From Spirochaetia bacterium (GTDB taxonomy: Bacteria; Spirochaetota; Spirochaetia; CADAEX01): 64,000 bases of DNA. Where the stretch lies: NCBI GenBank assembly GCA_963662795.1, contig OY759746.1, positions 576,001 through 640,000 on the forward strand, given 5' to 3'. Numbering within the stretch: position 1 is the stretch's first letter; every line of letters begins with the position of its first letter. The notes beneath the pieces were generated by a model that worked only from the letters and a program-made list of their open reading frames with translations, was not told the origin of the DNA and made no database searches. This document shows, in pieces, positions 19,060-28,698 of the stretch. The translations under genes and the position numbers were made by a program.

Positions 19060-19662
19060 TCAAGCCTTGTAGTAATCAGAAACCTGTTTCCAGTTTATGA
19101 TTTTGAAGAAGTTCTCGATATAATCAGGACGCCTGTTCTGATAGTTAAGATAATAGGCATGCTCCCATACATCAAGCCCCAGAACAGGGGTATCTCCTTT
19201 TGTAATCGGTGAGTCCTGGTTCGGTGTGGAATATACGCTTAAGCTTCCGTCCGGCTTTACAGCAAGCCAGGCCCATCCTGATCCGAACCGCGAAACCGCA
19301 GTTTTTGAAAACAGCCCTTTGAAGAACTCAAATCCGCCGAACTCCTTCTTTATTGCATCCGCAAGCTTCCCCTCCGGCTCGCCGCCACCCTTGCTGTCAA
19401 GTATTGTCCAGAAAAGGGTATGATTGGCATGGCCGCCGCCGTTGTTCCTGACTGCTTCCCTGATTGATTCAGGAATGCTGTCAAGGTTTTTAAGCAGATA
19501 CTCTATGGTCTTTTCAGCCCATTCTGTCCCCTTTACGGCATTGTTGAGGTTGTTTACATATCCTGCGTGATGTTTATCATGATGAATCTCCATTGTCTTT
19601 GCGTCAATGACAGGTTCCAGAGAATTAAAGCTATATTCAAGTTTCGGTAATATAAAATCCAT
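19060..19662 (-). CDS. sodA: Fe/Mn superoxide dismutase (GGH signature, Mn-like)
   Basis: [30 protein letters not shown]. Start at ATG 19662 with an AGGAG RBS. Confidence 0.95.
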
Positions 19663-19751
19663 ATAAACGCTCCTATATAATACTAATATTGTATGATATA
19701 AAATAATAAATATGGCGGGCAAAATCAAATTTATTCAGCCTGATCTGCTGA

Positions 19752-20468
19752 TTACTTTAATGGATGGAGATAGACTATCCCGTCTGTCTTATCATGCTTC
19801 ATAAACTGCGGTATAAGGAGGAGCTCCCTGTCTGATTTGACAATCAGCCTGAAGCGGGCATCGGGAAAGGAGCTGTCTGTTTCAAACTCGTTTTCCTTTA
19901 CATACCTTAAATAGTGCCATCCCTCCTCGTTGTAGCGGGATGCCTCGTCGTAATCAGGAATATAGATGAGGAACTGAAAGTCGCCCCGGACAGTTTTGTA
20001 TTCGTGATATTCATCTGGTGAACTTTTAAATGTCCAGTCGCCGTAGAGGGGGTCTGTATCTTTTTTGTAGTTGCCGTTAAAGACGCGGTACATTGTCGGG
20101 GTTGTAAGGATCTCGCTGCCATCTGTGCGTTTAATCAAATGCTCCCATTTATAGATTTCCGTACTCAGTTCAAGGATTTTGTCACCATTATCATCCATTA
20201 CATCCGGCATATACATCATTCCATCATGTATTTCTTCAATATAGTAATTGATCCCTTCCCTCCTTATCTTGAAAAGCCTTGACCCCTCTTTCCGGATAAA
20301 AGGTTTTATTTCGAAGATATTGTCCTTGTGATGGTATATTTTTTCCCCCTCCCACCTGCCAGAGACAAGAAAGCTGTACCTGTTATAATTAAACTCCTCT
20401 TCAGCAAAAAGGGCTGAAGAGATAAATATAAAAATCATACCAACAAAAATTCTACTTTGGATTTTCAT
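19752..20468 (-). CDS. Exported hypothetical protein; candidate immunity/partner protein of the giant protein
   Basis: Signal peptide MKIQSRIFVGMIFIFISSALFA; TAATG stop/start overlap with the upstream gene. Confidence 0.75.
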   Translation of the reverse strand: MKIQSRIFVGMIFIFISSALFAEEEFNYNRYSFLVSGRWEGEKIYHHKDNIFEIKPFIRKEGSRLFKIRREGINYYIEEIHDGMMYMPDVMDDNGDKILELSTEIYKWEHLIKRTDGSEILTTPTMYRVFNGNYKKDTDPLYGDWTFKSSPDEYHEYKTVRGDFQFLIYIPDYDEASRYNEEGWHYLRYVKENEFETDSSFPDARFRLIVKSDRELLLIPQFMKHDKTDGIVYLHPLK

Positions 20469-23400
20469 TACCGCTCCTTCCCGTAAAAAATGTCACCTGA
20501 ATTGCGCACCATCCTTAAGTCATCAGCACGGGACCTGCTTATCTTCGCCCTGAAGAAATCATATCTTTTTATCTCATCCGGCCGGTAGGTTGTCCTTCCC
20601 CCTTTCAGGGGATTCAATACCTCGATTTCAGAAATAACCTTGCTCCCCTCTTTATCTGTAATGGTATTAAAATCCTTAAGTACCATAAAATGGGTGCCGG
20701 TCGATACACGGACAGATTCAGGCGAGCCTGAATACTTTCCCGCTTCAAGTATTCTGATAATTGTGTTGTCTGAATAATCCTCTGTTGAAAGGGTAGCAAA
20801 ACTGAAGCTGTATTTTCCTTCCGTGAGGATATTTAAGGCCTTGCTTGAATCTGTATAGAGAAGATTTCCTTCCGTGAACTGTTTTTCCTTTTTAAGGATT
20901 TCATTGGCATCCCTTCCATCAATTTTATTGCCGGTGAGCGTCTGCTGTATGTAAAGGAGTGTATAGAGGTTGCAGCCTGCCTCAGATATGGATTCATTTT
21001 TGTATAGGTCGATTTTATATTTCTTTTGTGTTTTATCATCATTCTTCCAGAGTGAAATAAAATCATCTTTGCAATAACTTTCACCAGGTATTCCGTTATC
21101 TGTCAGGAATTTCTGATACTGCACCTCAAACCTCGCCCCGTTCACCTCGCTCTCGTCATACCCCAGCGTTGCGTTGCTGTTTACGATGCCGCTGTTCTGC
21201 TTAAGGCCGAAATCCTTAAAATCAGGAAAATAGTTGTCACTGTCGCTGTTGTATGATGCAGATGCATAAGCCTTGAACAAATCAATATTGCCGCTCTCAA
21301 GCGCAAGCTCAAGCAGCTTTGCCTCAACTGCGAGATGAGGATTGCTTTCAGCAAAACCTGCATATTCTTTTCCGATATCACCTGCCATGACTGTGTGGGC
21401 AAGTACTGCGTTTAAAGTTTCTTCCGTCTGTTCAGCCCCGCTGCCGGCAATTCCGTCACGGTGAGCCTCATGCCCGAGAAGGACCGCAAGTTCAAGCGAG
21501 CTGTAAAGGCTGCCGGCCCCGCTTTTAACCCTTATGTCCCTTCCTCCCCGGTTTGCGTTATAAACAGTCTGCGCGCTCCCCTTAATTGAATCATCAATGA
21601 CAAGCGCGTTTTTGCCGGATAGCAAGTTTTCAAACAGGATACCTGCCTCTTCATCACGCCTGTTTGAATAAAGGCCCCTCATGCTTACTGCGTTTTCCCT
21701 TATATTCTCTTCCCCTGACGCGTATATCCTTCCGTTCTGGTGCCAGACTTCAAGCCCTTTCACCGAAGAGGCTGTATTTGAAACGCTTATATTCTGCCCA
21801 TCCATCCCTATGTTTAAAATATTTCCTCCGCTCCCAATCCCCAGTTCAAGCAGTCCTGTATTTCCGAACCCGAAATCGGAAGAATTAAGGATATTGAGCT
21901 TAACCTTCCCTGTCCGGCTGTATTCCCACATTGATGCGGCTGAAGATGCGATTGTGCTGTCAAGCGCCCTCCCTTTTTCGAGCGAAGCGCCGTAAAAACC
22001 TGTAAGAGTGCTGTCAAGCGCCGCAGAACCCATACTGCAAATATATCCGGCAGCAGCGCCCGCGCCCAAAAGGCTGTTTCTGCTGTTCTTCTCAAAATCC
22101 TTTAAATCAAAGTATAATCCATCTGAATTCAATGCAAAAGAATTTATTCCGGCAGATGCAAGATTTGAGGCGCTGTTTCTAAGCCCCGCTTTTGCGGATG
22201 CGGTTATAAAACTGTTTTCGGTATATGCCGGCTTTCCAATGCCTGATATTCCTGCCGAAGCAAGACTCACGGCGGCGCTCCTTCCAAGCGACAGCACCCC
22301 TTCATCCCAGTCCGTAATACCGTAACCGGCATCAAGTGCCGCAAATGCTGCGTCATCCGCCAGATTAAGCGCTAAAGAGGTAAAAAGACCGGCGCCGCCT
22401 GAGGCGATGCTCATCGCGATATTTGCGGCACTTCTCGCGCTTGGAGCACCGAGGAGGGTATCTGATTTGCCGTCATTGTTTTTATCATCATCCCACATCT
22501 TCCGGCTGTACCATGGCTGGTCTATTGCTGCAAGACCCCGTCCGAGCCGGGCCTCGTTTCTCAGGTAAAGCTCATATATCCTTCCGTATTCACCATAGCC
22601 TTCCTTACTGACCTTTTCAGGGTTTTTCTCACTCATTAAAGGGGCATAACCAAGATGCATATAAAAGAGCCCGCTAATATTTCTGTATTCTTCATACCGG
22701 CCTGAAGTTTTATACTTCCCTTCCAGTCTTTTTGTATACTCAAGGAAATCCTCATCAAAACCGCTCCATTTTTCTGCTTCTCCCGAATCTGTTTTTCCAA
22801 AAATCAGCTCAGAGTACCGAGAAAGATTTTTTACCGCTTTATCAATTTTAAGCTCAATCTCACAGGCTCCCGACATTGCAAGCGAGTCCCTGTCAAGGTC
22901 AACACCGATATCGAAATCAGGTGCAGCAAAATATCTGTACCCTTCTATCTCCTGCCGCTCATTCTCAATTCCACCTAAAAGTGAAATATCAATTATTGCG
23001 CTTCGCGAAAATATATTTCCTTTCCTCTTATACGCTTTTCCCTCAAGAGTGTCCGACAGCTGCTTGGTGCTTTTAATATTTGCTGTTTCTATATTTTCCC
23101 TTATGCTGTCCTCAATTTCAGTAATTACCTTTGCCGTCTTCATACCGGTAAGAAGCGCTCCCCTCTTTCTTATATCTTCTGTTATTTTTTTCTGATAGTT
23201 TTCAAGGGCAGCGGCTGAACCGGAAAACGTACATACATCAGGCAGATATGATGCGATAAAAGTTTTATCATTTCCAATTCCTTGAGTATGGTATCTTGCA
23301 GATTCGGCAAGAGAGCTTAAAAGAACGCTGTCTGTAACTTCCTCAACAATGCCGTCGAGGTCCACGTTATTTGTATTCACTGCAGGAACAAAGGTAAATT

Positions 23401-26400
23401 CAGCTGCTGAAATCAACTCATCCGCCCTTATTCCGCTTTTGCGGGCAAGGCTTTCCCCTGTGCCTTTTGCCGCGGAACATGAGAAATCATTAATCCATTC
23501 CTCCCTGCCTGAGACGAGAAAACTGTATTTGTCATTCCAGAGCTCCTCCATTCTCAAAGCTTCAAGCGAATATTCTTCCTGCCATTTTTTCCTTTGCTCC
23601 CTTATTGTATCAAAACTCCTGTTCCATTCAGAAATGCCGCATCTGTGAAGCTCCGACATCCTCTCCTGCCACTTTATTTCAGCATTTTGAATCTGCTGAT
23701 ACTCTGTTACAAAAGCATCCTCATTATTATCAATAAAATTCAGCATGCATGCCGTTAAAAGATTTACTGCGGAGCTGTTTCCTGATGCGAGGACCCTCTC
23801 CTTCCCTGAAAAGTCGACAAACGCAGATTCTTTTATTATCTCATATTCACCTGCCGCGCCGCTCTTCATGCTCCATGACGGGTTGTAGTACAAATCAATA
23901 TATTCCTTTTTGATATCATCAGCAGATATACTGCTTTCTTCCTCCATAAGGCAGAGATCTGCTTTTTTATTATTCCTTTCTTTTTCAAGCATCAGGGAAA
24001 GGGCCAATATAGATTCATCCAGTACGGCAATTTTTTTTTCATATTCAAAGGCAAGCCTTTCTGCCGCCGCATAACTGGTGGTCTTGCATTCACTCTCCAA
24101 TGACGAATATATATTTTCGGCATCGCCCGGAAAACCGTTTCCCGTTTCAGCGGGGGCTTTACCCACGGCCTTTTCAATTGAAATAACAAGTGAGCTGAAC
24201 GGAATGACAGATCCGTTCTCAGCGCTTCTTCCGGTAAGAAGCTCAATTTGATTATTGCATTTATCAAGGTTTTTCCGGTTTTCAAATGCTGCCATAACAG
24301 CATCAGATATTATTGTCCGCTCTTCCCCGCCATTGATATCAGCCATATTATGACGCATCCTGCTCATTTTAGAGGTAGTCCTTTCAAAAAAATTGCTTAC
24401 AGGATGTTTTTTCTTTATCTCTTTTTCTTCTTTTTTGGATTCATCCCAGAGATAATCATGGGCAATATGACCTGCATCCTTTCCGATAAATGACGTGTCA
24501 AAAACTACCCTGCCCGACAGCATCATTGTGCGGAAAAAACTGTACAGAAGAAAAAGATCACGGTCATTTTTTATGCTTTCAAGAACAGCTTCGGCAGATT
24601 CATCTGTATATTCTTCAGGATCGCAGTCTGCGTATTTTCCTTTTTTCAAAGTGCAGTAATTCTGGTCTGAATAAAGTGCAACATTGACCTTATCCTTGTA
24701 TTCGCTGTAAAAGGCTATTCCGAATTTTTTCAGGAGCGCAGAACCGGAAGCCCTCCCCCCGCTGAATAGACCATTCATCCAGTACCATGTATCTTTGCTG
24801 AAAATATTTCCCGCATCCTGACGTGAAAAATACTCTTCAGAAGCGCAGAGCAGTGACATTATATCATTGTATTCGGTGAAATCAGTTATTTGATAATTTT
24901 CTTCATCATCAGGCAGAGTAAACCGGTAATCATATATAAACAGCTCACTGACCGCATCCGTTATCTGCGAACATAATATACCTGATTTTTCTTCAAGCAC
25001 CATTATATCCCTTCCCAGCTGTGCGGCCCCGGCAGACAGGTAATTAAGGGAGCTTAAGGCTTCTCCCTTCTTTTCAAGAAGGTCAAGATATTCAGGGTCA
25101 AGGCATTCCATATACTCTTTTTTTTCGACACTATCCCTGATACCGCTAACTGCTTTATATATAAGGTCAGCGCGCTCATAATCATCCTTTTTTTCCTGCA
25201 GTACTGCAAGCGGATCTGTAAGGGGGAGCCGGTAGGGGGAGACAGCATAATCCATTATTTCCTGAGCAAGCTGGAGCGCATCAGATGCTTCCCTGTAATC
25301 TATATATGCGGTATCCGCCTCTGTTTTTTTTATCCTATAGGCGCCTGCAACAGCAGAAAGGTCAGACAGTGATTGTTCATATTCCGATAAAGCATAATCA
25401 AATGCTGCTTTCTTCTCATCAAGAGAAATTTTCAGATCAGCGACATTATTTTCAAAATATCCGGCTGTTTCAACTTCAAAACCGGCAAGCCTGTTTTCGA
25501 GATCAGAAAGTTTTGTCAAAGCAGATGCAGCTGATTTTTCAAGCGCAAGGACAGCTTCCCTTTTTTCTTCCGGGTTCCCGCAGGCAGCAAAGTCCTGCCC
25601 GTCTGAGCTGAGCGCGGAAAGAGAGAGGAGCAGCAGTTTTTCGAAGTTTGCCCTTTCCCTGTATCCTTCAGAAATATAAAGCGATCTTTCAAATGAAAGT
25701 TTTGCAGCGTTTACCGCATCACTCCCTTCAGAAACGTCAGACGCAACAGATGAGGCCATAATATTTTTTGCTTTTATTTCAGCAGCTGCAATATTGATCA
25801 GAATTTCTGTAATATAATCCGGCGCCCCGATTTCAAAAACTGATTCAAACAGCTCTGTTAAATCTTCTTCATCCTCAAGATCTGCGGTAAAACAGACACT
25901 CACGCCCCCTGCATCATCTCTTTCTATAACACCAAATATTTCAAACAGCGCTTCTGACAACCCTTCCCTTTCAGAATCAATATATGCTGAAGAAAGAGGG
26001 CGCCAGAGGGCAACAGCCCTTCTTTCCGCATCAAGAAGCATCAAATCACCTGATGACATTTCACCCCCGGAATAGTTTGCGCCGCTGCCGCCAGTCAGAG
26101 GATTTTCTGTATAATCCCCCTGAAGCAATGCAACTGCAGTTTCCTTCTCAAGCACCAGGCAGTCCTGTTGAATTTTTAGTTTTTCCCAGCAGGATAAAGC
26201 ATCTTCAGTGTTGCCGTCCAGAAAGAAAACTTCAAATGATTTAAAATCTGCTGATTCTGTATCAATTCCTGCCAGGGCAAGCTGCGCCTTTAGTTCTCCG
26301 ATACTTTCAGGATCACCGAAATCCGGTTCTATCCTGTAAAGGTTGTCCCTCCTGGCAAGAGCAGTTTCAAGATTTTCAATATTGTCAAATCGTGAAAGAC

Positions 26401-28561
26401 CGAGAAGATCCGCAAGAAGTTCGGAAGAGGTTTCAGAAATTTCCTCCCGCAGGGCATTTTCCATGCTTAAGAAATATTCATTCCAGGCTTCACATCTTTC
26501 TGATTCGTAAAAAAAATCGACATCTTCCCTTAAGTTTTCAATACTGCACTGAAGAAGCCCGGAATCCTTTAGTCTGAATATTTCCATGCTGTTTTCATAT
26601 TCAGCTTTCGCAGCCTGATATAGATAATCCGCCTCTTCAAGAATCTTTTTTTTCTCACTGACGTTTTCTTCTGCAGTGCTTAATCCGCTCTCAAGCAGAG
26701 AATCAAGATCTGAAATAATCAGGCTGTATTTTTTTTCATATTCATCAGACAGGGCAAGGGCTGCCCTGTAATTTTCTTCAGATTCTGCTTTTCTCTCCCT
26801 TTGAGATGTAAAATCGATGGAATAATCATAAACTGCCTGTGCAATTTCCAGCTGCCGGCAGAGCAGGTCTCTTTTTTCTTTCAGCAGCTCAAGTTCCATT
26901 TCAAACTCATCCCCGCCGTACGGGCTGTCTTCAATCCGCTTTTCAAGGGACAGGATTTCTGATTCAGCCCTTTCCATCCCTTCCCTGCAGCTGCCAGCTG
27001 CAGTGCTCCAGTATGAGTGTTCTGTAATATAGCCTGCCAGTTCATCATCCTTTGTATTGATGAGAACAAAAGCCCTTTCGTATTTCGATTGTAGATCCGG
27101 CAGCTGCATTTCGAGTTCGGTAATTCTGTTATTGAACAGCTTTACTGCTATTGCACGCCCTATATTGAGACTGCCGCTGCCATGTTCATCATCACCTGAA
27201 TCTTCGTTATCTTTAAGATTTTCAAGAGCATTTTTACACGAATCTATTTCCTTGTTTATATCTTCAATCTCACTTTCATATCTGTCTGCAGTTGCCTGTT
27301 TGCCTGCTTTCCATGCAGTAATTCTGTCGATTTCGCCCTTAAGCCAGGAAATATTAATTACAGCAGTTTCCCCGAGGCATCTGTTTTCACGGTACAGGGA
27401 CAGAAGCATATCAGCTTCCCTGTAAAACCTCTCTATCTCATTACGGGAAGCCTCTTCCATCTGCCTGGAAGCATTTTCCTGACAGGTGAAAAAATCAGTT
27501 TCTCTCTCCCTCCAGTAAGCTCTTCCTTCCTCCATGATTGTGCTCATCTCTGAAAGCCATCTGTCTCTGGCTATCGCCAGACTTCCGGCCGCCTCATCCC
27601 ACCTTTCTTCCGCTTTTATATAGCTTTCCTTTGCATCATATTCCCAGCTGAGTCTTTCCGACAGAAAAGATTTTTCGACGTTTTCCCATTTCTTTATTCC
27701 GATCTCAAATTCATTTTTATAGCTTTCCTCCCATTCCGATAATTCAGCATTTACCCTCTCTTCCGGCAGCGATGATATTGAATTCAAATCCTTCTCAAGA
27801 CGCTCTCGCGCTTCAGAGAGAGATACTTCAATCTCTTTTAAAGCATCAGATGCAGCTGATGACGCGCTGCTGTTTTCGCTTTCCTTTTTGAGAGAAAAAC
27901 TGTCAAGGCTTCTTTTTGTCAAAAAATATTTTTCTTTTTCAGTAAAAATATATTCAAATTCCTTTTTTATTTTCTCCCTGTACTCATTAAATGAAACAGT
28001 AAGGCGATTATTAAATTCTTCAGGACAATCATCGGAGAGCCGGGAAAGTTCATCATAAACAATACACACACTATTTTCCCAATCCTCGAATATACTGTTT
28101 AAGACAGAGCACACCTCATCATCCCAGAGTGTTTTATCAGATTCAAGCCCTGCTAATTTCTTAAACACCGGGTCCCTGTTGCTGTCAAAAATAATTTCCC
28201 CGTTTTCGGTATCATAAAGATATTTAATATTCAGCCTTTCTATTTCCTTAAGCAGAGTTTCAATGCCGGATGACGGCAGATCCTTCTCAATCTGTCTCAT
28301 CTTCCAGATACCATAACGCTTTGCCATCTCTGCCTCTGCAGAAGCCCTCTCTCCGGAGGAGAGATTATCAAACCCAGTCAGGGAAGTCCGCATCCAGCGG
28401 GCATCGCGTTCTTCCAGATCCGCCCTGTCAAAATACACTTTCATGTTCTGCGGGGAGGGACGATACGACAGATCAAAATTACGGACTGACTGGGCCCCTG
28501 TCTTACTGATAATTACTGAAAACAGCACAAGGACTGTTAATATTTTAAGGTTTTTATGCAT
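20468..28561 (-). CDS. Giant (~2697 aa) secreted coiled-coil protein with a C-terminal papain/C39-like domain; polymorphic-toxin-like
   Basis: ATG 28561 with AGGAGG RBS and a signal peptide, long acidic helical body, Gly/Ala/Ser-rich segment, LGHEAHRDG motif, and C-terminal GC...HFMV...LNP. Confidence 0.7.
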   Translation of the reverse strand: MHKNLKILTVLVLFSVIISKTGAQSVRNFDLSYRPSPQNMKVYFDRADLEERDARWMRTSLTGFDNLSSGERASAEAEMAKRYGIWKMRQIEKDLPSSGIETLLKEIERLNIKYLYDTENGEIIFDSNRDPVFKKLAGLESDKTLWDDEVCSVLNSIFEDWENSVCIVYDELSRLSDDCPEEFNNRLTVSFNEYREKIKKEFEYIFTEKEKYFLTKRSLDSFSLKKESENSSASSAASDALKEIEVSLSEARERLEKDLNSISSLPEERVNAELSEWEESYKNEFEIGIKKWENVEKSFLSERLSWEYDAKESYIKAEERWDEAAGSLAIARDRWLSEMSTIMEEGRAYWRERETDFFTCQENASRQMEEASRNEIERFYREADMLLSLYRENRCLGETAVINISWLKGEIDRITAWKAGKQATADRYESEIEDINKEIDSCKNALENLKDNEDSGDDEHGSGSLNIGRAIAVKLFNNRITELEMQLPDLQSKYERAFVLINTKDDELAGYITEHSYWSTAAGSCREGMERAESEILSLEKRIEDSPYGGDEFEMELELLKEKRDLLCRQLEIAQAVYDYSIDFTSQRERKAESEENYRAALALSDEYEKKYSLIISDLDSLLESGLSTAEENVSEKKKILEEADYLYQAAKAEYENSMEIFRLKDSGLLQCSIENLREDVDFFYESERCEAWNEYFLSMENALREEISETSSELLADLLGLSRFDNIENLETALARRDNLYRIEPDFGDPESIGELKAQLALAGIDTESADFKSFEVFFLDGNTEDALSCWEKLKIQQDCLVLEKETAVALLQGDYTENPLTGGSGANYSGGEMSSGDLMLLDAERRAVALWRPLSSAYIDSEREGLSEALFEIFGVIERDDAGGVSVCFTADLEDEEDLTELFESVFEIGAPDYITEILINIAAAEIKAKNIMASSVASDVSEGSDAVNAAKLSFERSLYISEGYRERANFEKLLLLSLSALSSDGQDFAACGNPEEKREAVLALEKSAASALTKLSDLENRLAGFEVETAGYFENNVADLKISLDEKKAAFDYALSEYEQSLSDLSAVAGAYRIKKTEADTAYIDYREASDALQLAQEIMDYAVSPYRLPLTDPLAVLQEKKDDYERADLIYKAVSGIRDSVEKKEYMECLDPEYLDLLEKKGEALSSLNYLSAGAAQLGRDIMVLEEKSGILCSQITDAVSELFIYDYRFTLPDDEENYQITDFTEYNDIMSLLCASEEYFSRQDAGNIFSKDTWYWMNGLFSGGRASGSALLKKFGIAFYSEYKDKVNVALYSDQNYCTLKKGKYADCDPEEYTDESAEAVLESIKNDRDLFLLYSFFRTMMLSGRVVFDTSFIGKDAGHIAHDYLWDESKKEEKEIKKKHPVSNFFERTTSKMSRMRHNMADINGGEERTIISDAVMAAFENRKNLDKCNNQIELLTGRSAENGSVIPFSSLVISIEKAVGKAPAETGNGFPGDAENIYSSLESECKTTSYAAAERLAFEYEKKIAVLDESILALSLMLEKERNNKKADLCLMEEESSISADDIKKEYIDLYYNPSWSMKSGAAGEYEIIKESAFVDFSGKERVLASGNSSAVNLLTACMLNFIDNNEDAFVTEYQQIQNAEIKWQERMSELHRCGISEWNRSFDTIREQRKKWQEEYSLEALRMEELWNDKYSFLVSGREEWINDFSCSAAKGTGESLARKSGIRADELISAAEFTFVPAVNTNNVDLDGIVEEVTDSVLLSSLAESARYHTQGIGNDKTFIASYLPDVCTFSGSAAALENYQKKITEDIRKRGALLTGMKTAKVITEIEDSIRENIETANIKSTKQLSDTLEGKAYKRKGNIFSRSAIIDISLLGGIENERQEIEGYRYFAAPDFDIGVDLDRDSLAMSGACEIELKIDKAVKNLSRYSELIFGKTDSGEAEKWSGFDEDFLEYTKRLEGKYKTSGRYEEYRNISGLFYMHLGYAPLMSEKNPEKVSKEGYGEYGRIYELYLRNEARLGRGLAAIDQPWYSRKMWDDDKNNDGKSDTLLGAPSARSAANIAMSIASGGAGLFTSLALNLADDAAFAALDAGYGITDWDEGVLSLGRSAAVSLASAGISGIGKPAYTENSFITASAKAGLRNSASNLASAGINSFALNSDGLYFDLKDFEKNSRNSLLGAGAAAGYICSMGSAALDSTLTGFYGASLEKGRALDSTIASSAASMWEYSRTGKVKLNILNSSDFGFGNTGLLELGIGSGGNILNIGMDGQNISVSNTASSVKGLEVWHQNGRIYASGEENIRENAVSMRGLYSNRRDEEAGILFENLLSGKNALVIDDSIKGSAQTVYNANRGGRDIRVKSGAGSLYSSLELAVLLGHEAHRDGIAGSGAEQTEETLNAVLAHTVMAGDIGKEYAGFAESNPHLAVEAKLLELALESGNIDLFKAYASASYNSDSDNYFPDFKDFGLKQNSGIVNSNATLGYDESEVNGARFEVQYQKFLTDNGIPGESYCKDDFISLWKNDDKTQKKYKIDLYKNESISEAGCNLYTLLYIQQTLTGNKIDGRDANEILKKEKQFTEGNLLYTDSSKALNILTEGKYSFSFATLSTEDYSDNTIIRILEAGKYSGSPESVRVSTGTHFMVLKDFNTITDKEGSKVISEIEVLNPLKGGRTTYRPDEIKRYDFFRAKISRSRADDLRMVRNSGDIFYGKER

Positions 28562-28698
28562 TTCAGCCTCCTGATTCAATCCGGATCCGGATGAGACCTG
28601 TTCTGTTTAAGTAAACAGGCAAAAAGGGGTGTTTAATTCAATTTTCACTTGAAAGATTCAGTTTTTTAACCCATATTTTCCTTAGCTGAGGCGCTAAG

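Follow-up and report, generated by a model that had tools for sequence, protein, structure and literature searches.

A giant exported spirochaetal protein with exchangeable C-terminal tips and a coupled exported partner: a probable polymorphic toxin and immunity pair

Two overlapping genes in a 64 000 bp stretch of DNA from a Spirochaetia bacterium (contig OY759746.1, positions 576 001 to 640 000; hereafter the window) probably encode an antibacterial toxin of the polymorphic type together with its immunity protein, the carrier belonging to a family found mainly in Spirochaetia. This reading was drawn from sequence comparison. The first-pass annotation had proposed the same toxin and immunity layout, and comparison of homologues, covariation of tip and partner and the finding of orphan cassettes lend it support. 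Established here are the anatomy of the giant protein, the swapping of its tips and their covariation with the partner, as well as the existence of orphan cassettes, the fold of the tip and the gene linkage.

Anatomy of the giant protein and its partner

The giant ORF described in the first pass was located on the minus strand (Table 1). Its longest reading, from a TTG codon, covers 20468..28579 (2703 aa); translation more likely begins at ATG 28561, preceded by AGGAGG at a distance of 7 nt, for a product of 2697 aa, the length also of the database copy (P0004). A set of 5.8 billion proteins yielded 13 homologues, all unnamed or 'hypothetical' and from Spirochaetia wherever named. Searches of Pfam and NCBIfam returned no family above threshold, and RHS, haemagglutinin, PAAR and VgrG domains accordingly went undetected in the giant protein; no TpsB gene adjoins it, and the first-pass annotation had likewise seen none of these. 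The neighbouring genes are housekeeping genes (pst/phoU, cupins, SOD, GNAT, SurE, U32 and a histidine kinase), which are also kept in genome G002.

Table 1. Features of the two genes, in window coordinates.
Feature	Position	Strand	Basis or detail
Giant gene, putative carrier-toxin, 2697 aa	20468..28561	-	ATG 28561, stop TAA 20468-20470; ORF list and translation
Signal peptide, Sec-type, about 23-24 residues, ending ...TGA before QS	28490..28561	-	Read from translation; hydropathy
N-terminal domain, conserved, ending at about residue 430	27290..28489	-	Distant homologue alignment
Variable acidic middle, about residues 431-1600	23780..27289	-	Unaligned in distant homologues; charge
Gly/Ala/Ser-rich, moderately hydrophobic segment, residues ~2040-2230	~21890-22462	-	Composition and hydropathy
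Pre-toxin domain, residues ~2265-2454, L-x-HEA-x-R-x-G, ending near D-Y-W/F	21218..21787	-	Alignment and AF2
Exchangeable tip, residues 2456-2703, predicted papain-like cysteine peptidase	20471..21214	-	AF2, Foldseek, VIA-align
Putative triad of tip, Cys2536	20972-20974		
Putative triad of tip, His2630	20690-20692		
Putative triad of tip, Asn2656	20612-20614		
Coupled gene for the exported partner (238 aa), a putative immunity protein	19752..20468	-	TAATG overlap

The N-terminus of the giant protein, MHKNLKILTVLVLFSVIISKTGAQS, combines a basic n-region with a hydrophobic core (Kyte-Doolittle maximum 1.83); read by eye from the translation, it agrees with the Sec-type signal peptide called previously. 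Similar N-termini were seen in most of 17 full-length relatives inspected and in L095, and a shared Y(F/Y)DRAD motif comes after the signal peptide. Distant homologues (P0012-P0016) align with residues ~12-427 at 22-29% identity and leave the middle of the protein unaligned. This variable acidic middle is probably a stalk of variable length; each 200 aa of it bears a net charge of -10 to -30, and lengths in the family span 1925 to 4139 aa. Every 200 aa segment up to residue 2600 is net negative (D+E 10-24%), as expected from the long acidic body noted in the first pass.

The glycine, alanine and serine-rich hydrophobic stretch of the earlier annotation was also recovered. Between residues 2001 and 2200 these amino acids make up 42%, with moderately hydrophobic runs at 2051-2114 and 2169-2189 (hydropathy peaks 1.2-1.4). 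The region is the best-conserved part of the body, residues 1969-2190 retaining 34-43% identity even in distant genomes. A role as translocation segment is putative. The LGHEAHRDG motif, reported at this position before, occupies residues 2368-2376 (21452-21478) within the pre-toxin domain. In an alignment of 21 sequences (A3) the L, H, E, R and G are invariant, and ET, AVxAH and Y..D nearly so. Structure models were made for two C-terminal segments. In that of the pre-toxin domain (pLDDT 77) a predicted sheet precedes a helix that has HEA at its end; its fold matches are weak (Z up to 5.7), with many zincin peptidases among them.

The exchangeable tip begins after this domain. Similarity to differently tipped relatives stops at residues 2416-2470, confirming that the distinct C-terminal domain of ~250 aa recognised earlier is real. 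No Pfam family matched the tip. Its model (pLDDT 74.6) folds as a papain-like cysteine peptidase with conserved Cys, His and Asn; Foldseek placed UfSP first (E 9e-4) and C39 domains next, and VIA-align gave the phytochelatin-synthase-like Alr0975 (Z 10.9, rmsd 3.6, 146 aligned), UfSP (Z 10.1), C39 (Z 9.3) and StbD/CdiA-CT (structure 8ssm; Z 7.8, rmsd 3.1, 117 aligned). In the alignment Cys is present in 11/11 covering rows, His in 13/13 and Asn/Asp in 13/13. Against the toxin reading, a papain-like domain in terminal position might serve in processing and not itself be toxic. Matches to Peptidase_M23 were found in 21 of 73 metagenomic tips of the family and in the tails of P0014 and P0015.

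The stop codon of the tip overlaps the start of the 238 aa gene in the sequence TAATG, as stated in the first pass, and a GGAGC-type ribosome site lies ahead. The N-terminus of the partner, MKIQSRIFVGMIFIFISSALFA followed by EEE, resembles a signal peptide on reading, and the earlier descriptions of it as a signal-peptide protein and as one of no recognisable family both stand, the latter against Pfam and NCBIfam. A word-indexed search found only four other clusters at E<=1e-3; BLASTP added 19 partners of this kind among 84 units. Of the 24 ORFs lying downstream in genomes, 18 are exported by reading (16 were flagged by a crude script), and most metagenomic partners start with a signal peptide or lipobox. 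The export of nearly all partners suggests a periplasmic site of action. Domains matched in the partners (n=60), SH3_3 (7), LRR_8 (4), Ank (2) and WD40 (1), are protein-binding repeat or adaptor domains.

The first-pass annotation had pointed to a link with the Leptospira family TIGR04388 ('Lepto_longest'), with which the giant protein shares great length, export and spirochaetal origin. In a protein-language-model search the N-terminal 424 aa fell nearest a TIGR04388 cluster, with a score of only 0.76. The TIGR04388 HMM matched neither the giant protein nor anything in genome G000 at E<=1, a profile of the giant-protein family gave no significant score on seven TIGR04388 proteins, and membership is not supported. 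Of 121 genomes, eight had TIGR04388, all of family f47.

Exchange of tips and covariation with the downstream gene

Homologues share a common body to about residue 2455 and then carry unrelated tips. The bodies of P0008 and P0011 are 91% identical over 793 columns and their tails do not match; P0013 and P0014 show the same at 46% body identity. Conversely, P0011 and P0012 have bodies only 31% identical and tails 47.5% identical (E 7e-80), as do P0001 and P0016 at 24% and 29% (E 1e-6). These comparisons show that tip exchange is independent of the body.

The downstream gene differs according to the tip. Among 84 units, a gene of the partner family came after papain-like tips in 23/27 and after other tips in 0/57. 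Within genomes the papain-like tip was paired with the partner family in 4/4 cases, the class C tip with an ankyrin lipoprotein in 2/2 (G005, G041) and the class B tip with an exported protein of ~130 aa in 2/2. These counts overstate the support, since the metagenomic loci include many near-duplicates and the related genomes lack independence from one another. Covariation is not one-to-one at the broad clustering level, because 235 locus pairs share a tip cluster and differ in partner cluster, the tip clusters being broad and the partner clusters many. The first pass had suggested following the sequence after HEAHRDG and the downstream gene between related genomes; both change across the family, in which full-length conservation with an invariant C-terminus and downstream gene was not found.

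Orphan cassettes of tip and partner, beginning at or upstream of the L-x-HEA-x-R-x-G motif, were found in a related genome and in metagenomic loci. G005 has three downstream of the main gene; one is 88.7% identical to the second copy in that genome over 346 aa and diverges after, and one pairs a partner homologue with a tip fragment that matches the tip of G011 at 92.7% identity. Two tandem pre-toxin places occur in 4/80 metagenomic loci. Against the toxin and immunity reading, tip and partner are conserved in the genus of the window, at 75% and 73% identity to those of G002, and G000 carries a single tip with a single partner and lacks orphans. The polymorphism appears only at family scale. 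Six species of genus g2 have a single tail at 71-97% identity, followed by PyrK and not an exported protein; the partner of a related orphan had no homologue in five genus g2 genomes in a search run without a positive control. The giant gene is patchily distributed, in 25/61 related genomes and 4/121 phylum-wide.

A candidate export route and mode of action

A TolC/HlyD/RND operon with Big_5 lipoproteins, repeatedly beside giant genes and co-occurring with them, is a candidate export route. A TPR/OEP/HlyD/Big_5 operon adjoins the giant gene divergently in G005, G046, G022 and G024; a Big_5 match lies within 5 kb of it in G059, an RND permease gene lies 43 nt upstream on the same strand in L095, and a match to the operon was found in 16 of the 33 metagenomic loci whose upstream sequence extends over 9 kb or more. 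Among 61 related genomes, 21 have both the giant gene and Big_5, four the giant gene only, three Big_5 only and 33 neither. In G000 the operon also contains two AcrB-type permeases and is 2.4 Mb from the giant gene; this distance, and the presence of Big_5 homologues in 17 genomes phylum-wide that have no giant gene, argue against a pump reserved for the giant protein. A literature search found no description of an RND pump exporting a folded or giant protein.

In the mechanism we propose, the giant protein would leave the cytoplasm by Sec, with the conserved N-terminal domain and the acidic stalk forming the carrier. The Gly/Ala/Ser segment and the zincin-like pre-toxin domain (HEAxRxG) would be the junction at which recombination exchanges tips, and the papain-like cysteine peptidase would be the toxic tip in this genome. 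As partners across the family are exported proteins or lipoproteins, and M23 peptidoglycan peptidases make up many of the sister tips, the most likely place of tip action would be the periplasm or cell wall of competitors. The 238 aa partner would block the tip in the periplasm of the producer and its kin, and the linked operon with its Big_5 lipoproteins may provide for passage across the outer membrane of the producer, or for anchoring there.

Alternative explanations and related systems

The giant protein may instead be a self-directed envelope protein, a fibre in the periplasm or on the surface. Its enzymatic tip would then remodel the wall of the cell that makes it, or process envelope proteins of that cell, and the partner would be a timing regulator or inhibitor. 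M23 and papain-like enzymes serve also in normal wall turnover, the RND/TolC operon would be linked because all the genes serve envelope maintenance, and the operon without the giant gene, the stable tip and partner in the window's genus and the single tail without an adjoining exported partner in genus g2 are consistent with this. We consider it unlikely, however, as housekeeping enzymes are not expected to carry swapped tails on bodies 91% identical, to occur as orphan cassettes or to have tip-specific partners from ankyrin, LRR and SH3 binders, and the family is patchy.

An effector or adhesin against a eukaryotic host or prey, with the partner as chaperone or secretion helper, would suit a large, stalk-like protein whose nearest tip folds include the ubiquitin-like-modifier proteases UfSP and ZUFSP. 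This seems very improbable given that the partners are exported and covary with the tip, that many sister tips are M23, acting on peptidoglycan, and that the sources, where named, are Spirochaetia MAGs from the environment; a search of G000 for an injection system found neither TssC nor secretin, while positive controls matched. In tape-measure proteins a long helical body is joined to hydrophobic Gly-rich segments and an M23 or other lytic tip; the giant protein may resemble them in this order of parts, and M23 tips are common in its family. Descent from such a protein, domesticated or in a tailocin or prophage remnant, is nonetheless hardly credible for a product with a Sec signal peptide, encoded among housekeeping genes with no tail, capsid or integrase gene nearby and matching no Pfam tape-measure family.

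The toxin and immunity reading has parallels in known systems. MafB/MafI and other Sec-dependent polymorphic toxins rely on an N-terminal signal peptide, with no secretion domain of their own. They join a conserved N-terminal region to a variable tip, and have an adjoining immunity gene and orphan cassettes; the giant protein and its relatives share these features, its partner lying downstream. The MafB carrier is about five times shorter, and the giant protein differs in having N-terminal, Gly/Ala/Ser-rich and pre-toxin domains that Pfam does not contain, and in the candidate RND tripartite route across the outer membrane. Type VI Tae/Tai pairs are wall-directed enzymes, with papain-like and M23 folds as weapons, neutralised by exported immunity proteins; the exported putative immunity partner and the papain-like and M23 tips resemble these, whereas no sheath gene was found in G000, the enzyme is fused to a Sec-exported carrier of 2450 aa and peptidoglycan activity of the window's tip is putative.

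CdiA/CdiI (type Vb) likewise combines a giant filamentous carrier, exchangeable tips, an immunity gene directly 3', the place of the putative immunity gene here, and orphan cassettes; its swap point is marked by VENN, that of the giant protein by HEAxRxG...DYW. In contrast to CdiA, neither a TPS domain nor haemagglutinin repeats were detected in the giant protein, no TpsB gene adjoins it, and its body shares no sequence family with CdiA. According to bioRxiv 10.64898/2026.05.07.723447, a C39-family peptidase is the tip of the CdiA-like toxin StbD, which acts in the cytoplasm, whereas the partners here are exported. Sec-dependent polymorphic toxins are listed as a general class in PMC3482391, and PMC4686830 describes an ankyrin protein that guards Bdellovibrio from the wall peptidases it secretes, an idea matched by the ankyrin-repeat lipoprotein after the class C tip; organism and carrier differ, and the partner in the window is not an ankyrin protein.

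The giant protein would represent a type of exported carrier absent from family libraries, and an exchangeable enzyme tip with its own exported partner would be the signature of a toxin and antidote used in bacterial competition.

The two-gene unit and its surroundings

The giant gene and the partner gene immediately downstream form a real, intact two-gene unit. An ATG at position 28561 lies six codons past the TTG from which the giant ORF was listed and is preceded by AGGAGG 7 nt upstream, therefore the product was taken to be 2697 aa; an identical database protein is also 2697 aa in length. The N-terminus is basic and then hydrophobic, resembling a signal peptide, Gly, Ala and Ser constitute 42% of residues 2001-2200, where moderately hydrophobic segments also occur, and the stop codon overlaps the start of the 238-aa ORF (TAATG), which itself begins with a signal-peptide-like segment. 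Translation, composition and ORF listing thus placed the giant ORF, its signal-peptide-like segment, the Gly/Ala/Ser stretch, the LGHEAHRDG motif and the coupled exported ORF where the first-pass annotation had located them. The acidity ascribed to ∼2000 aa was borne out and the protein is net acidic over its entire first 2600 residues. Scans with Pfam and NCBIfam gave nothing usable for either the giant protein or its partner, aside from a sub-threshold FlxA match on the former, and phmmer found no match among PDB sequences for the whole giant protein or for four other tips.

Locations of the principal features
Feature	Location	Strand	Source or remark
Giant-gene ORF	window 28579 to 20468	-	ORF listing; 2703 residues when read from TTG
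LGHEAHRDG motif	residues 2368-2376, window 21452-21478	-	translation
Partner ORF	window 19752-20468	-	238 aa
Fe/Mn superoxide dismutase gene	window 19060-19728	-	directly downstream of partner gene
Transport operon of the same genome	G000:C1:3001559-3014245 (locus L058:3559-16245)	-	2.4 Mb from giant gene

The flanking genes encode a phosphate ABC transporter with PhoU, two cupins, superoxide dismutase, a GNAT protein, SurE, a U32 peptidase and a hybrid histidine kinase, and no phage genes or classical secretion genes were found among them. The TTG listed for the superoxide dismutase gene adds 22 hydrophobic residues before a conserved MDFILPKL start, seen also in the related genome G002, so the internal ATG is probably the true start. 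The G+C content is 0.30-0.40 in most 2-kb windows of 36000-64000, compared with 0.42-0.47 in the first 34 kb, and positions 36000-64000 may mark an island or a stretch of different composition.

Exchange of tips and downstream genes

A word-indexed search recovered 13 homologues of the giant protein at E<=1e-3, of 1930-4139 aa, all unnamed or 'hypothetical' and from Spirochaetia wherever named. Distant relatives could be aligned only over about residues 12-427 and 1600-2456, indicating that the head and the C-terminal body are conserved and that the middle varies. Alignments with relatives carrying other tips ended at query residues 2416-2470, leaving 320-370 residues unaligned, which agrees with the distinct C-terminal domain proposed from the sequence. 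Relatedness of the body (alignment columns for residues 1640-2440) and of the tail (last 240 aa) was clearly discordant among the homologues. P0008 and P0011 share 91% identity in the body with no match between their tails, and P0013 and P0014 share 46% in the body, again with no tail match. The bodies of P0011 and P0012 are 31% identical and their tails 47.5% (E 7e-80), while P0001 and P0016 share 24% in the body and 29% in the tail (E 1e-6). The swapping of tips between relatives past the junction, which the first-pass annotation had suggested should be sought, was therefore observed, with unrelated tails residing on 91%-identical bodies.

The giant gene was present in 25 of 61 related genomes searched, from which the downstream DNA was then retrieved. 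One motif scan of metagenome contigs produced 276 pattern matches, from which 173 relatives were confirmed and 80 loci kept, and a search with the 21-row junction alignment, restricted to proteins of 679-2000 aa, added seven further unnamed proteins without Pfam domains. Members of one genus, g2 (L029-L034; G016, G018, G012, G017, G006, G014), have small genomes and a shorter protein of ∼1935 aa. A single tail is kept at 71-97% identity across six species of this genus, with PyrK and PyrD downstream instead of an exported partner. This tail has weak similarity (24-27%) to the tip of the third orphan cassette of G005, described below, and a search of five g2 genomes, run without a positive control, found no homologue of the partner of that cassette. 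The giant protein may be used otherwise in this genus, or the partner may be located elsewhere.

Orphan cassettes were found in relatives. In the related genome G005 the main gene and an ankyrin partner are followed by three cassettes. Orphan 1, an ORF of 711 aa with its start within the Gly/Ala/Ser region, is 88.7% identical over 346 aa to the other copy in the genome and carries its own tip beyond, followed by a lipoprotein; upstream of its ATG the homology continues through a stop codon. Orphan 2 is a 151-aa fragment of a papain-like tip, 92.7% identical to the tip in G011, followed by a partner homologue, and orphan 3, an ORF of 398 aa, starts at the HEAHRDG region and has a further exported protein downstream. 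Orphan 1 displays, by eye and with support from no tool, an NlpC/P60-like DC...GHIAIL pattern. A single orphan cassette was detected in G041, two short database proteins (P0026 and P0027) start just ahead of the junction motif, and 4 of the 80 metagenomic loci have two tandem junction domains. Orphan cassettes and extra partners were searched for in the genome under study (G000) and none was found.

The gene downstream changes with the tip. The tip type of the window occurs in G000, G002 and G011 and as the fragment in G005, and in 4/4 cases the next gene encodes a homologue of the 238-aa protein (53-73% identity). An ankyrin-repeat lipoprotein follows tips of a second class (G005 copy 1 and the G041 orphan) in 2/2 cases, and an exported protein of ∼130 aa follows those of a third (G005 copy 2 and G008), also in 2/2. 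A single-sequence scan of the genome contigs with the partner returned the G002 copy only. Clustering was performed on 84 tip and partner units (60 metagenomic, 24 genomic), counts that are not independent because several loci are near-duplicates. Papain-like tips form the largest class (27/84) and a gene of the partner family follows 23 of these 27 versus none of the 57 others, upholding the proposal that the downstream gene is exchanged together with the tip. Among locus pairs, 299 were concordant, 235 combined the same tip cluster with different partner clusters and 11 combined different tips with the same partner; pairing thus departs from a strict one-tip-one-partner rule, as broad tip clusters go with several partner clusters.

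Downstream ORFs were judged to be exported in 18 of the 24 genomic units by reading and in 16 by a crude script, and most metagenomic partners have a signal peptide or lipobox at the N-terminus. Domains recognised among the 60 metagenomic partners were SH3_3 (seven), LRR_8 (four), ankyrin (two) and WD40 (one). Two successive exported proteins or lipoproteins, rather than one, follow the tip at L026 (in G042) and L038 (in G041), which could mean that immunity genes are paired or duplicated there. Co-folding of the tip with the mature partner (residues 24-238), each from its alignment, scored 0.00 twice in runs without controls, a result that favours neither side.

The junction domain and the predicted fold of the tip

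The 21-row alignment of the junction domain has an L-x-HEA-x-R-x-G motif in which L, H, E, R and G are invariant, and a D-Y-W/F motif ∼75 residues further on, after which similarity stops. A model of residues 2230-2470 (pLDDT 77) comprises a three-stranded sheet, a helix that comes after the sheet and has HEA at its end, and a long helix bearing a near-invariant AVxAH. Fold matches were weak (best Z 5.7) and many of the top rows were zincin peptidases; Foldseek returned none at E<=1e-3, and in a language-model atlas the clusters nearest to residues 1950-2460 were M48 and zinc-protease clusters, all with scores below 0.9. The HExxH zinc-binding motif is absent from the junction, which reads HEAHR with Arg at the position of the second His in 21/21 rows, the one exception being the distant homologue P0015, which reads HEGTH. 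The domain is putatively zincin-derived and probably not a standard metallopeptidase; it may act as a junction, perhaps with a processing role.

The tip was modelled from its last 264 residues with a 13-row alignment at medium confidence (pLDDT 74.6). Both Foldseek and an independent all-against-all aligner (VIA-align) matched the predicted fold to papain-like cysteine peptidases. The best Foldseek match was UfSP (E 9e-4), then C39 domains, while VIA-align gave Alr0975 (Z 10.9, rmsd 3.6, 146 aligned), UfSP (Z 10.1), double-glycine C39 domains (Z 9.3), pseudomurein endoisopeptidase (Z 8.5) and the C39 tip of the CdiA-like StbD (Z 7.8), and every one of its top 17 rows (all Z at least 8) was a papain-like enzyme. 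The putative catalytic residues, in the numbering of the tip model, are Cys97, present in 11/11 covering rows, His191 (13/13) and Asn/Asp217 (13/13); the Cys lies at the start of a helix (95-110), and in sequence the His and the Asn/Asp border strands 192-202 and 208-216. The last 330 aa matched no Pfam family at E<=0.05, Peptidase_C39 included.

Among 73 metagenomic tips, Peptidase_M23 was detected in 21 (best E 2.3e-16) and calpain-type Peptidase_C2 in one, and Pfam gave no usable match on 15 genome-derived tip stretches. Four homologue tails yielded weak Peptidase_M23 matches (P0014 and P0015), a sub-threshold TraO match (P0016) and none (P0013). As the partners are exported and the sister tips are wall-directed, these data suggest action in the periplasm. 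The C39-type toxins published so far are reported to act in the cytoplasm (StbD preprint, bioRxiv 10.64898/2026.05.07.723447).

Relation to known systems and a candidate export route

Unrelated tips on a conserved carrier, a tip-specific downstream gene and orphan cassettes in relatives together match the layout of a polymorphic toxin system, the kind of system that the first-pass annotation had proposed. The best reading of the unit is that of a polymorphic toxin, mounted on a spirochaete carrier and ending in a papain-like peptidase tip, together with its immunity protein, toxicity and neutralization being putative. CdiA and other two-partner secretion toxins differ in possessing a TPS domain and haemagglutinin-type repeats, and Rhs/YD toxins in possessing RHS/YD repeats with PAAR/VgrG; a Pfam scan of the whole giant protein found none of these, substantiating their reported absence, and TssC was not found in G000 by a search that detected its control. 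A phage tape-measure protein would be located among tail genes, and the ten flanking genes scanned are housekeeping genes. The suggested link to the Leptospira family TIGR04388 (Lepto_longest, curated cut-off 45 bits) was discarded, as HMM searches run both ways gave it no support. No NCBIfam match to it was present on the giant protein at E<=0.1 or in G000 at E<=1, and the reverse profile search was not significant; a TIGR04388 cluster was nearest to the N-terminus in the language-model atlas, with a score of 0.76. Systems of this kind are already known, and none of the libraries searched contains the carrier, the junction domain or the families of tip and partner.

TIGR04388 proteins do occur in genomes of family f47 (L062-L069), with several copies per genome and open frames of 1934-3205 aa, and the C-terminal end of one (L063) appears Hint-like by eye (...VVHNYD). 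These proteins, unrelated in sequence to the giant family, might themselves be polymorphic toxins.

The giant protein has a Sec-type signal, and an operon is linked to it by position and co-occurrence. The same operon, encoding a TPR lipoprotein, a small unknown protein, a TolC-like protein, an HlyD-type adaptor and two Big_5 lipoproteins, divergently precedes the giant gene in four distant genomes (G005 copy 1, G046, G022 and G024), and in G059 a Big_5 match lies <5 kb from it. In G000 it codes for the TPR lipoprotein, an unknown protein of 183 aa, the TolC-like OEP and HlyD adaptor, the two Big_5 lipoproteins and, in addition, a pair of AcrB-type RND permeases; homologues of this operon adjoin giant-toxin genes in other genomes as well as on metagenome contigs. 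At metagenomic locus L095 an RND permease gene stops 43 nt ahead of a 2755-aa family member on the same strand, at L101 the operon is divergent and at L137 it is downstream. Of the 33 metagenomic loci whose upstream sequence extends for 9 kb or more, 16 had an operon-type match. Across the 61 related genomes, 21 had both the giant gene and Big_5, four the giant gene only (two of these fragments), three Big_5 only (one genome being 81% complete) and 33 neither. The same tally by genus was 10, 3, 2 and 28, with a Fisher p of 8e-6 that overstates the support because kin are not independent. Dedication of the operon to the giant protein is counted against by Big_5 homologues without the giant gene in a phylum-wide sample of 121 genomes, where Big_5 homologues occurred in 20, the giant gene in four and both in three.

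Neither a type VI sheath gene (TssC) nor a secretin was detected in G000 by searches that detected their positive controls; PF03865 (TpsB) was not found in G000, although the control genomes were equally silent, and none lies near the gene within the window. A possible but rather unlikely arrangement is that the TolC-like channel, HlyD-type adaptor, paired AcrB-type permeases, two Big_5 lipoproteins and TPR lipoprotein form a dedicated machine that would move the Sec-exported ∼300 kDa toxin from the periplasm, threaded or mounted through the outer membrane. If true, this would be an RND-pump-driven route of protein secretion with the giant family as its polymorphic cargo. The literature covered, which excluded the supplementary tables of PMC3482391 that possibly list spirochaete toxins, contained no description of the carrier family or of RND-dependent toxin export.

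The polymorphic toxins known so far come chiefly from proteobacteria, Bacteroidota and Firmicutes, where their carriers are associated with secretion types V, VI and VII. The family described here adds a large uncatalogued spirochaete carrier that has a junction domain of its own. Neither its papain-like tip nor its partner family is filed, and the tips and partners suggest that it acts in the periplasm and on the cell wall. How a spirochaete without detectable type II secretin or type VI genes would place a giant protein beyond the outer membrane is now testable, with the RND/TolC/Big_5 operon as a concrete candidate, and the tip and partner pairs are a source of new peptidase-inhibitor pairs.
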